Positions 29,401 through 33,087 of a stretch of DNA of 64,000 nt are shown here, in pieces (position 1 is the first letter of the stretch; every line of letters starts with the position of its first letter). The stretch spans positions 381,855-445,854 of the forward strand of contig JBAZGN010000001.1 in NCBI GenBank assembly GCA_041652815.1, written 5' to 3'. The notes beneath the pieces are model-generated. The model searched no databases. It was not told the origin of the DNA and saw only the letters and a program-made list of their open reading frames with translations. The DNA is from Candidatus Omnitrophota bacterium (GTDB taxonomy: Bacteria; Omnitrophota; Gorgyraeia; Duberdicusellales; 4484-171). The translations under genes and the position numbers were made by a program.

Positions 29401-32400
29401 AACAATTACCTACTCTCAAGCCTTTGAAGCTTTTAACCGGCCAATTGAGTCGCTTCTTAAAGACAAAGACGGCAACGTCATTACCAAAAAAACCGCTGAA
29501 TACGACGATAGAGGAAATCTTTCCAAAGAAACTATCTTTATTCTTAATCCATTATCGGGCATCAGCCTCGCGCCATCAACTCTTTATAGCTATGACTCGT
29601 TTGGTAATTTAATTTCTACAACCGACACACTTGGCCGTTCAGTTACAACCGAATACGATACAGATTTCTACGCGTATCCTCTAAAAGTAATTAATAACTT
29701 AGGCCACACCGTAACCCAAACCTATAACTATAAATTCGGAGTAGTTACATCTGTAACCGATACAAATGGACATACCTCGCAAACTTTCTATGATTCATTA
29801 GCCAGGGTTACCAGTGCCAAGAATGCTTACAATGAAACAGTTATTACGTATTCATATCCTGATTTTAACACCAAAATAACAACTAATGCTTTGGGGCATT
29901 CCAAGACCGAATACATTGATGGTTTAGGAAGGGCGTATAAGGCAGTTTCAGTGGGAGAAGATGGCGCATCAGCTCGGCAAGTCTCATCGGAAACTTATTA
30001 CAATAATCGCGGCGCTGTAAGCAGCGAATCACTGCCTCATTATATTGACGAAGACGCCTCGCAAATTTCCTATGTCCGCTATGAATACGATATAAGAGGC
30101 AGAGTAAAGAAAACTATTTCGGACTTCCCCGGAACCCTAAAAGATGCGCAAGCTTCAATAAGTTATATAAACCCTCTCTACATCGAAACAACTGATCCTG
30201 AAGGCCATAAGAAAGGAACGCTTAAAGATGTCTACGGTAACAACATTGAAATAACCGAATTTACCCAGGGCGGGGTCTATAAAACTAATTACGAATACGA
30301 TATCCAAAATAACCTTGTTAAGTTAATTGACAGCAAAGGCAATATTACCCAGATTTTCTACGACTCTATCGGCCGCAAACTAAAAATGATAGACCCCGAT
30401 ATGGGAACTTGGCTTTATGAATATGACATATTAGGTAATCTTACCAAACAAACCGATGCTAAAAACCAAATCATTACTTTTGCTTATGATGAGCTGAACC
30501 GCTTAACTAAGAAGACGAAGGACAACGGAGCAGGGACAGTAGACGAAATTAATTATTTATATGATGACAATTTGAAAGAAAACTGCATAGGAAGATTATC
30601 TAAAGTAACCGATACAAGCGGCTCAACCGAATTTTTCTACGACAAATTAGGTCGTGAAATTAAATCTATTAAACGAGTATCTGGCATCGAGTATCAAGTA
30701 TCAAGAACTTATGACATTTTAGACCGCTTATCCAGCCTAACTTACCCCGATAACACAGTTATAAATTATTCTTATGACGCAAATTCAGGGCTTTTGGAAA
30801 AAGTTTCTAACTCAACGAACACGATAAATTATGTAAACTCAATAAACTATAATGCCAAAGGCCAAATTCGCGACATAATTTACGGCAACAATACCAAAAC
30901 AGATTATACTTACGGCCAAGACTTAAGGTTATCCAATATACTAACTACTAACTACCAACTACAAACTACCCTTCAGGATTTAAATTATATTTTCGACAAA
31001 AACGGCAACATCACAACTCTAACTGATAACAAGCGAAGCAATATCCGTACCTACACTTACGATGAGCTAAACCGTTTAACCCAGGCAAGCAATGTGCCGG
31101 CAGTTGGCGGTGGTTACACCACCTTCAATTACCAATACGATTCAATCGGCAATATGACCTATAAGTCAGACCTTGGCGTAATGGCTTATGGTCAAAATGC
31201 CGGTCCGCATGCCGTAACATCTGCCGGAGGCTACACTTATCAGTATGACGCAAATGGCAATATGACTGTCGGCAAAAACAAAACCCTTGAATACGATGCT
31301 GAAAACCGTCTTACCAAAGTAATCGAATCAACTTCTACCTCTACATTTACCTATGATGGAGATGGAGGCAGAGTCAAGAAGGCCGTCAGCTCTCAGACAT
31401 CAGGCGACAGCGAAACAATTTATATTGGAAGCCTTTATGAGCTGACGACTGAAAGCGGACAGCAGAAAGCTGTTAAACATATTTTTGCAGGGTCTACAAG
31501 AGTTTGCAGTCTCGAACTAGACGCTACCCGCTCTACGCTAAACACTAATTATTATCACGGCGACCATCTTGGTTCATCAAATGTTATTACTGATGCCAAC
31601 GGCCAGCTTGTCCAATACTGCGAATACACGCCTTACGGCACATTAGCTCGTAACGAAGGCGCAAACATTACCAACTATAAATTTACTGGCAAAGAACTCG
31701 ACTCAACCGGTCTCTACTTCTACGGCGCCCGCTACTACGACCCGGAGATTGGGAGATTTATAACGGCGGATACAATAACTCAAGCGCCTTTTAATCCGCA
31801 AACGCTCAACAGATACTCTTATTGTGGTAATAACCCTATTAATTATATTGATCCCACAGGGCATTGGTTTTGGTTTGCTATTGCAGCTGTATTTATTGGT
31901 GCAGCAAGTGGCGCTGCAATATCCGCTATAACTGGGGGAGATATTGGAGCAGGAGCTATCTGTGGTGCGATTAGTGGAGCGTTATTCTTTGCGGCTGGTA
32001 GCGCGATCGGCGGGCTAGCAACAGCCTTAGCAATTCAAGAAGGAACTGCAGCTATGACTATGCTTACAGCAGGGATTCATACCATAGCCGGTGCTATGTC
32101 AGGTGCTTTAGGTGCAGTTGCCACAGGTGGAAACCCAGGGATGTCGGCTGTAATAGGTGGACTTAGCGCTGGAGTTAGTGCGGGTGTTTCAGGTATTTTT
32201 CCTATACAAGGTAAAGGCTTTGATGCTTTTGTCGGTGAAGGGTTGCAAAGAACAACAGTTGGTGCTATTCTTGGTGGAGGCATTTCTTTGGCAATGGGCG
32301 GGACTTTTGGTGCAGGTGCAGCTCAAGGCGCAATGACTTCATCAATCGCATATATTGCAAATTGCACCTTGCATAAGGTTGAAACAAAGGTACGTAATGC

Positions 32401-32818
32401 ATTAAATACAAAAAAACCAATTGTTCTTGCCAGCGCTCTTTATAATGATGATGATCAACTGCCCATTGGCGGTCCGCCTTTAATGCCCGCAGCCGGATAT
32501 CCTGCAGGCGGCGGAAGCAGCGGTTTGGGTGGGGCAAAAGTTTATCGGGTGTGGGGTGGCGGATCTGGATCACAAGGAAGATCTTGGACAACAGTAAACC
32601 CCCAAACGGTACCAAATTTTCGAGGACAAGCAGGCTTACCGCCACAAAATACTGGACGCTTTGTTAGTGAAGGTACCATAACCAATTCCTCTGGGGTTAC
32701 GGTGAAATCAGCAGAGCCTATTTATGGTAATCCGGGAGGTTTAACTGAAGTTGTTATTCCTGATTCTAGCACCCAAGTAAGGTTAGAAAGGGTTTCTGGG
32801 GCTAATCCAGAATATTAA
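26486..32818 (+). CDS. giant secreted RHS/YD-repeat protein (TcB/TcC-like): cadherin-like repeats, FG-GAP beta-propeller, RHS repeats and RHS core (DPTGHW), then a C-terminal glycine-zipper-rich polymorphic toxin domain
   Basis: Signal peptide. Three or four NPPVLD.IPDITVNE cadherin-like repeats. About seven GDFNGDG FG-GAP repeats. Many YD repeats (YDxxGN...). RHS core ending in PINYIDPTGHW. About 320 aa of GxxxG-rich hydrophobic and unknown sequence follow. In the same frame as the upstream ORF, separated from it by TGA and TAA stops. Confidence 0.8.
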   Translation: MNYFCNKDNLLYKTCVIFLIFLHLFAFGPIRDALAYNAQSASYQLSSGALTQGGKAAVGVSAKIWQATLSEPVSGKSQSQSYILNAGFIPTIASNPPAQIQIIPNFAWQQNESKTNIIDLDDYFTSPDGYPLIYTVTGNSNINVVIDVATNQVTFSQSVGWSGTEKIKFKATDSEGSFAESNEITLQVVGVNNPPVLDYIPDITVNENELIKIIPHATDADGDVITYTFSAPLNSDGQWQTDYASSGIYTITVTAADPENLTDTQEVKITVKNVNRPPVLNPISDITVNEGQTAVIAPTVSDPDNDAISLYYSAPFDSQGKWITGYNDSGTYNITVTASDGIDTVTQNAKVIVTSTNRIPQVTLTLSKYTVTPNEQFNVVLSATDPDGDAMTFSLKKDGVEIASGNFNSSYTTTISFADVGDHEISGRITDSGNLTVLQTKGVDVAVADSSVNPVMGDFNGDALTDLGLHNSSTGKWEICLSDKGVFRNAVDWLTGFGNSSEWLPLSGDFNGDAKSDVAAYNFTTGELKVALSNSSGFSASGTWFTVPSPTYQKEECRSYEVCSGFLWFEECEQKQECYNIPVYPLQPFTGNFNADKYTDFGIYNKETGEVKIALGTGSGFGPLTVWLASSSANTEYITLGGDFNGDSLGDLCLFKKSTGEFKIAFSNSASFVDETSWISGYAANQDVTISDFNNDGLADIGYWDKPASKWYYAISTGNKFVDKGVWLSNFGSSGDDSATTGDFNGDGITDAACFDKEKIGIDRWLTQLSTNKPADLLTEIDNGIGGKTEVVYTYASQYDNDLLPFPVYVASSISLINTVRDNTPVSVTLPETYTQNFNYAGGYFDAIEREFRGFARITVTDPITNNYSETYFYQGKSGQDGALKGQIEKIIAYDGNGKLISQSLNTYEVKKATAGENCLGFPALIEQTATVYEENATSLSTKNLLTYDNIGNVIETKNEGDISKTGDEKIATITYSQAFEAFNRPIESLLKDKDGNVITKKTAEYDDRGNLSKETIFILNPLSGISLAPSTLYSYDSFGNLISTTDTLGRSVTTEYDTDFYAYPLKVINNLGHTVTQTYNYKFGVVTSVTDTNGHTSQTFYDSLARVTSAKNAYNETVITYSYPDFNTKITTNALGHSKTEYIDGLGRAYKAVSVGEDGASARQVSSETYYNNRGAVSSESLPHYIDEDASQISYVRYEYDIRGRVKKTISDFPGTLKDAQASISYINPLYIETTDPEGHKKGTLKDVYGNNIEITEFTQGGVYKTNYEYDIQNNLVKLIDSKGNITQIFYDSIGRKLKMIDPDMGTWLYEYDILGNLTKQTDAKNQIITFAYDELNRLTKKTKDNGAGTVDEINYLYDDNLKENCIGRLSKVTDTSGSTEFFYDKLGREIKSIKRVSGIEYQVSRTYDILDRLSSLTYPDNTVINYSYDANSGLLEKVSNSTNTINYVNSINYNAKGQIRDIIYGNNTKTDYTYGQDLRLSNILTTNYQLQTTLQDLNYIFDKNGNITTLTDNKRSNIRTYTYDELNRLTQASNVPAVGGGYTTFNYQYDSIGNMTYKSDLGVMAYGQNAGPHAVTSAGGYTYQYDANGNMTVGKNKTLEYDAENRLTKVIESTSTSTFTYDGDGGRVKKAVSSQTSGDSETIYIGSLYELTTESGQQKAVKHIFAGSTRVCSLELDATRSTLNTNYYHGDHLGSSNVITDANGQLVQYCEYTPYGTLARNEGANITNYKFTGKELDSTGLYFYGARYYDPEIGRFITADTITQAPFNPQTLNRYSYCGNNPINYIDPTGHWFWFAIAAVFIGAASGAAISAITGGDIGAGAICGAISGALFFAAGSAIGGLATALAIQEGTAAMTMLTAGIHTIAGAMSGALGAVATGGNPGMSAVIGGLSAGVSAGVSGIFPIQGKGFDAFVGEGLQRTTVGAILGGGISLAMGGTFGAGAAQGAMTSSIAYIANCTLHKVETKVRNALNTKKPIVLASALYNDDDQLPIGGPPLMPAAGYPAGGGSSGLGGAKVYRVWGGGSGSQGRSWTTVNPQTVPNFRGQAGLPPQNTGRFVSEGTITNSSGVTVKSAEPIYGNPGGLTEVVIPDSSTQVRLERVSGANPEY

Positions 32819-32835
32819 TTAAAGGAGATAGCAAA

Positions 32836-33087
32836 ATGGCTAATGGCAAGCATGGGGATCACCCCCTCACTGATATTTTAATTCATAAGGTTCCGGTTTT
32901 TTCTACTTCCATAGATAAGCTTATTACAGAAATTGCAAGATTTATTCCTAACTATAAGTTAAGAGAAATGTTTAATTGGTTTTCTCCCCCTCCTTTACCA
33001 GAATTTGAAAAACAATTGAAAGAAGTTCTTGATAAGGCTAGGCAAGAAGCAAAGGAAAAAGGTTGGGAGTTAAATCACGATAAATAA
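32836..33087 (+). CDS. putative cognate immunity protein for the RHS C-terminal toxin
   Basis: Small ORF with no signal peptide, 17 nt downstream of the toxin gene and with its own RBS (aaggagatagcaaaATG). The assignment is by position only. Confidence 0.4.
   Translation: MANGKHGDHPLTDILIHKVPVFSTSIDKLITEIARFIPNYKLREMFNWFSPPPLPEFEKQLKEVLDKARQEAKEKGWELNHDK

Follow-up and report, generated by a model that had tools for sequence, protein, structure and literature searches.

The number of known NAD(P)+-depleting toxins used against other bacteria or across kingdoms is growing, and their families now run from Tne1 to Tne5, the latest dating from 2026. The systems closest to the locus described here are Tne2 (an NAD(P)+ glycohydrolase effector of the Pseudomonas protegens T6SS, PDB 6B12), Tse6/Tne1, Serratia Rhs1-CT/Tne3, TNT and AfNADase. 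In NADases of the TNT type an essential aromatic residue stacks on the nicotinamide-ribose (Tne2 Phe330, Tse6 Trp344, TNT Phe727, Rhs1-CT Phe1386), and a Gln near the C-terminus is strictly conserved (Tne2 Gln387, Tse6 Gln413, TNT Gln822, Rhs1-CT Gln1452). Tne5, an Rhs-CT of Pluralibacter gergoviae, is an NAD(P) glycohydrolase despite a pocket built from a basic residue and a Glu; a gene for a small cytoplasmic immunity protein comes after it, and it is distributed over several delivery systems (JBC 2026, PMC13285283). Small-xxx-small runs in hydrophobic helices, which either make the target membrane permeable or bring a toxin that acts in the cytoplasm through it, occur in the N-terminus of the T6SS DNase Tde1, whose glycine zipper is required for translocation (PMC10240207), and in the TMDs of prePAAR effectors, Tse5-CT, EsxX and CdzC/D. 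Lastly, the TcB-TcC cocoon of Tc toxins and the RHS polymorphic toxins resemble our locus in their SpvB, FG-GAP, TcdB_toxin_midN and RHS repeat domains, their double Asp-Pro autoprotease motif, as described for Rhs proteins (PMC13285283), and their hypervariable C-terminal cargo.

We analysed a window of 64,000 nucleotides, the whole stretch of DNA under consideration, from a Candidatus Omnitrophota bacterium. Omnitrophota are a phylum of mostly uncultured bacteria in which an antagonistic lifestyle is under debate. The relevant features are as follows.

23522..26464, + strand: ORF of 980 aa with SpvB, Big_13 and ZU5 domains (Pfam); context, outside the cassette
26486..32818, + strand: RHS/YD-shell polymorphic toxin gene, 2,110 aa (ORF and Pfam domain matches)
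31730..31867, + strand: end of the RHS core, carrying both Asp-Pro motifs of the RHS/TcC aspartyl autoprotease (sequence; motif as in PMC13285283)
31865..32365, + strand: 'glycine-zipper' pre-toxin module, aa 1794-1960, hydrophobic and rich in Gly/Ala; contains 4-5 transmembrane-like segments (composition, hydropathy, homologues)
32366..32530, + strand: linker of low conservation, aa 1961-2015, with a Pro/Gly-rich end (unaligned in the family alignment; pLDDT ~50)
32531..32815, + strand: conserved terminal domain of ~95 aa, aa 2016-2110, putative toxin with a predicted ART/TNT-type NADase fold (family alignment, predicted structure, Foldseek)
32822..32827, + strand: AAGGAG, resembling a Shine-Dalgarno sequence, 8 nt ahead of the next ORF's ATG (sequence)
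32836..33087, + strand: soluble, all-helical protein of 83 aa, candidate cognate immunity protein (homologues, gene linkage, helix prediction)

The RHS shell and its C-terminal cassette

The 2,110-aa protein begins with a signal-peptide-like N-terminus and contains Big_9/PKD Ig-like, FG-GAP and TcdB_toxin_midN domains and RHS repeats, followed by the C-terminal cassette. Pfam searches matched PF05593 (RHS_repeat) in 8 stretches (E=1.1e-39) and PF03527 (RHS) at aa 1689-1723. The first autoprotease motif, RYYDPEIGRF, lies at aa 1749-1758 and the second, PINYIDPTGHW, at aa 1784-1794 (nt 31835-31867), where DPTGH stands in place of the expected DPxGL. A C-terminal fragment is predicted to be released around H1793/W1794. 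Three traits of RHS polymorphic toxins with C-terminal cargo were looked for and all were found: the shell repeats, the DPxG motifs, and the shared C-terminal domain with its partner gene. In contrast to TcB-TcC, two ORFs divide the TcB-like parts between them and also have Ig-like domains, and the RHS ORF has its signal-peptide-like start. The upstream 980-aa ORF is likely to be a partner of the RHS protein, by analogy with the TcB N-terminal region that partners TcC. No PAAR, VgrG or TcA-like domain was seen among the ORFs scanned, which were part of those in the window.

Beyond the end of the RHS core we distinguish a Gly/Ala-rich hydrophobic stretch of ~170 aa, a linker of ~55 aa and the conserved terminal domain of ~95 aa. 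The last two had been taken as one domain of ~130 aa in an earlier note on this DNA, the observation of which is otherwise confirmed.

The glycine-zipper module

The 175 aa that follow PINYIDPTGHW contain 37 Gly, 38 Ala and 12 Ser and only 9 charged residues, with transmembrane-like hydropathy in four or five windows along them. GxxxG occurs 12 times against 7.4 ± 2.2 in shuffles (z=2.1), and [GAS]xxx[GAS]xxx[GAS] 29 times against 20.2 ± 4.0 (z=2.2), a modest excess in both cases. The strong feature of the stretch is its composition, whilst the zipper periodicity is weaker, at about 2 sd over the composition-based expectation. Glycine-zipper families in Pfam gave no significant match (PF13436, Gly-zipper_OmpA: E=0.034, 14.4 bits against a cut-off of 27).

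In the homologues P0194, P0195 and P0196 the module precedes unrelated C-terminal domains. P0194 is 68% identical over the zipper region, yet its tail is a PLA2-like domain followed by a different ORF of 240 aa, and the tail of P0196 is DUF6973. Altogether the module was found before at least three different C-terminal domains, and wherever a downstream ORF was seen it differed each time. The same combination of zipper and toxin recurs in L018, L020, L023 and L024, and most members of the toxin family lack the zipper. It is thus a separable pre-toxin module. Its presence before PLA2-like or DUF6973 tails leads us to read it as a membrane-insertion or translocation module rather than as the toxin itself. 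As a PLA2-like cargo would act on the membrane, the module may be an anchor and not a translocator.

The earlier note had proposed a membrane-inserting or pore-forming effector. Insertion into a membrane is a plausible role for the segment; the pore-forming part fares worse. It would have the zipper region itself kill, by forming pores or depolarising the membrane in the manner of Tse5-CT, EsxX or CdzC/D, with the terminal domain as an accessory. The extreme Gly/Ala content, near lack of charge and 4-5 transmembrane-like segments would suit such a toxin, as would the weak Gly-zipper_OmpA match, and there are precedents in the glycine-zipper toxins EsxX (PMC12744356) and CdzC/D (PMC5380434), which depolarise membranes, and in the Tde1 zipper, which permeabilises them (PMC10240207). 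However, appearing before several unrelated domains with differing downstream ORFs is the behaviour of a pre-toxin or delivery element, and conservation is much higher in the terminal domain than in the zipper, which most occurrences of that domain lack. Immunity to a pore-former would normally call for a membrane protein. Here the conserved partner of the cassette is a soluble protein of 83 aa and no membrane immunity gene is conserved across the loci, the downstream ORFs with TM segments varying from one locus to another (a 4-TM ORF is confined to L019-L022). Given a separable zipper and a soluble protein as the only conserved downstream partner, a pore-forming effector is not the best reading of the whole module, and we consider it decidedly improbable.

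Read as a delivery module, the segment differs from described glycine-zipper modules in its length of ~170 aa, its position between the RHS autoprotease site and the enzyme, its alternative cargo domains and the lack of a significant Pfam glycine-zipper match. In contrast to Tne2 and the other TNT-type NADase toxins, the transmembrane-like segment lies inside the shell, between RHS core and toxin, and not at the N-terminus beside a PAAR domain. It offers a test case for how an RHS cargo with a cytoplasmic action might cross a target membrane without a T6SS spike or an N-terminal TMD.

The conserved terminal domain

A profile search with the terminal domain recovered 1,233 representatives at E<=1e-3, of which 881 also pass E<=1e-10; as representatives are clusters at 50% identity, the family holds at least 1,233 of these. 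Amongst the 150 matches listed, the domain ends within ~40 residues of the C-terminus in every case and mostly at the very last position; these proteins range in length from 115 to 3,445 aa. The N-terminal regions of such proteins are RHS, DUF637 (CdiA-type) or PT-TG, and this combination with a C-terminal position is a hallmark of a polymorphic toxin domain. Carriers come from MAGs labelled Omnitrophota/Omnitrophica, Bacteroidales, Cytophagia, Phycisphaerae, Byssovorax, Pyrinomonadaceae, Elusimicrobia and Pseudomonadota.

The signature residues are R2021 (nt 32546), S2033-W2034-T2035 (32582-32590), R2046, N2055, G2057, R2058, F2059, E2062 and E2088 (32747). Across 167 family sequences R2021 is kept in 164, E2088 in 163 and W2034 in 158, with Phe in 7 more; Q2097 is less conserved (125/167). 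Set against the TNT-type NADases, the family has YRVWG, SWT and NxGRFxSEG as motifs of its own. The domain matched nothing in Pfam, including TNT (PF14021), whether in the window protein (E<=1) or in 30 members of the family (E<=5), nothing in NCBIfam, and no PDB sequence at E<=10 in single-sequence or profile searches. The earlier claim of an RHS C-terminal toxin module without a known family is therefore borne out at the level of sequence, and the Pfam search placed the domain in no known non-toxic family.

An AF2 model reached pLDDT >90 over aa 50-140 of the query, and the top 16 Foldseek matches, each with a probability of at least 0.99, all belong to one group, the ART/TNT-type NADases. 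The fold is the palm-like split beta-sheet of the ART superfamily, shared with the TNT-type NAD(P)+ glycohydrolase toxins (Tne1-4, TNT, AfNADase). A sequence-level link to a characterised NADase was sought with Pfam TNT and related models and in all PDB sequences, and none was found; relative to Tne2 and TNT-type toxins, sequence similarity is undetectable (profile E-values >10) and structure-based identity is 13%. The immunity proteins are likewise unrelated.

In the predicted strands, R2021 falls in that of aa 2017-2022, S2033-W-T2035 in the next, and E2088 starts that of aa 2087-2090. Equivalences to known NADases were drawn from order and spacing, not from superposed coordinates, and on this basis W2034 may correspond to the essential aromatic: it lies 54 aa before E2088, compared with 57 from Phe330 to Gln387 in Tne2 and 66 from Phe1386 to Gln1452 in Rhs1-CT. 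The hallmark Gln was not found at the corresponding place, where, judged by spacing, the sole near-invariant polar residue is Glu2088. This Glu thus probably sits where the TNT-type NADases strictly keep Gln.

Alternatively, the domain could be a genuine ADP-ribosyltransferase with a minimal R-S-E set, which would modify a macromolecule of the target cytoplasm (for instance a protein, rRNA or tRNA) rather than simply hydrolyse NAD+. R2021 and the S-x-T resemble the Arg of strand 1 and the Ser-x-Ser/Thr of strand 2 in the transferase pattern. The residue at position -2 from E2088 is Leu (150/167), which leaves the [Q/E]-x-E motif expected on strand 5 incomplete, and the closest structural neighbours in the fold search were not transferases. 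Tne5 resembles the window domain in its Rhs C-terminal position, ART-like fold and pocket of basic residue and Glu; by its description it is set apart by size and helix content, its CT having 174 aa, five flanking helices and Lys1392 and Glu1482 90 aa apart, whereas the domain here has ~95 aa and two short helices, with 67 aa separating R from E. We regard the transferase reading as unlikely, and the domain, from its sequence and model, as probably a NADase, possibly an ADP-ribosyltransferase. Large and unannotated, the family would be a sixth branch, set apart by its catalytic residue, and this Glu in place of Gln bears on how hydrolases of NAD+ and ADP-ribosyltransferases that share a fold are told apart.

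The downstream 83-aa gene and a proposed mechanism

The 83-aa ORF starts 17 nt 3′ of the toxin gene. Its product has no hydrophobic segment and is predicted to be all-helical. The gene lies directly 3′ of the zipper and toxin cassette in nine other loci (L018-L025 and L028), which hold three further sequence variants of the cassette, and an 83-aa homologue adjoins a toxin homologue in an Omnitrophota record (ABIA66_02535/02540). This linkage supports well, as that of a cognate partner, the immunity role that had been claimed for the ORF. Moreover, the toxins that go with this gene group in a subclade, sharing 66-81% identity with one another against 48-67% with the rest. Residues P2053, K2074, E/D2077 and Y2080, which shortly precede the E2088 strand, are specific to this subclade. 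In 19 of the 22 other loci read, the toxin is directly followed by a partner ORF, and most toxin-family loci have an unrelated partner of ~125 aa instead of the 83-aa protein.

We also considered whether the ORF is a housekeeping small protein, chaperone or adaptor that lies downstream by chance. Distant homologues with the same invariant N-terminal motif, NGKxGDHPLTDIL, have no toxin in their neighbourhood and are flanked by nuoE and nuoF or preceded by a PTP-like gene, a fold search returned only generic helical bundles, and the ~125-aa partner is the commoner one. Against this, all close homologues with readable context start 9-17 nt after the toxin stop, in four cassette variants, the linked toxins are a subclade with their own surface substitutions, no other immunity candidate was found in the window, and unrelated immunity families for one toxin are documented. 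A chance neighbour is thus very unlikely in our view, and the 83-aa gene likely encodes the antidote of the terminal enzyme domain.

We therefore propose a three-part toxin cassette at the tip of the RHS protein with a soluble antidote gene downstream, an explanation to which, as a whole, we give about an even chance. The C-terminal fragment of 317 aa would be enclosed in the RHS shell, which would shield its hydrophobic segment until delivery and whose aspartyl autoprotease would probably cut at DPTGH|W. The first ~170 aa, as 4-5 nearly uncharged Gly/Ala-rich helices, would insert into the target membrane and there hold the enzyme domain or assist its passage, an analogy drawn from the TMDs of Tse6 and Tne2 and from the Tde1 glycine zipper. 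The last ~95 aa would be a minimal ART/TNT-fold enzyme that consumes NAD(P)+, most likely a glycohydrolase that depletes the cofactor. Going by order and spacing, W2034 would stack on the nicotinamide-ribose, R2058 or R2046 would bind phosphate, and E2088 would replace the Gln conserved in Tne1-4 and TNT. In the producer cell, the soluble 83-aa protein would bind and block the enzyme. The analysis establishes where the domains begin and end, the family with its C-terminal placement, the match in fold, the modularity and the linkage of the genes, whereas every activity is inferred.

A broader hypothesis, which we offer as possible but doubtful, is that the terminal domain represents an undescribed and very widespread family of minimal NAD+-targeting toxin domains with a TNT/Tne fold, an ART-like R-S-E set and Glu for Gln, neutralised by immunity proteins of two unrelated families. 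Its delivery in Omnitrophota would rely on a glycine-zipper translocation module of ~170 aa that is independent of the cargo and stored inside an RHS shell, an internal counterpart of the N-terminal prePAAR TMDs that works without a T6SS, and the 83-aa protein may have been recruited from a small housekeeping protein of the nuoE-nuoF locus of complex I. For annotators, the toxin and its two immunity families are three new families. The 83-aa protein has homologues in 25 clusters, among them an NCBI entry of 100% identity that comes from a MAG of Candidatus Omnitrophica.

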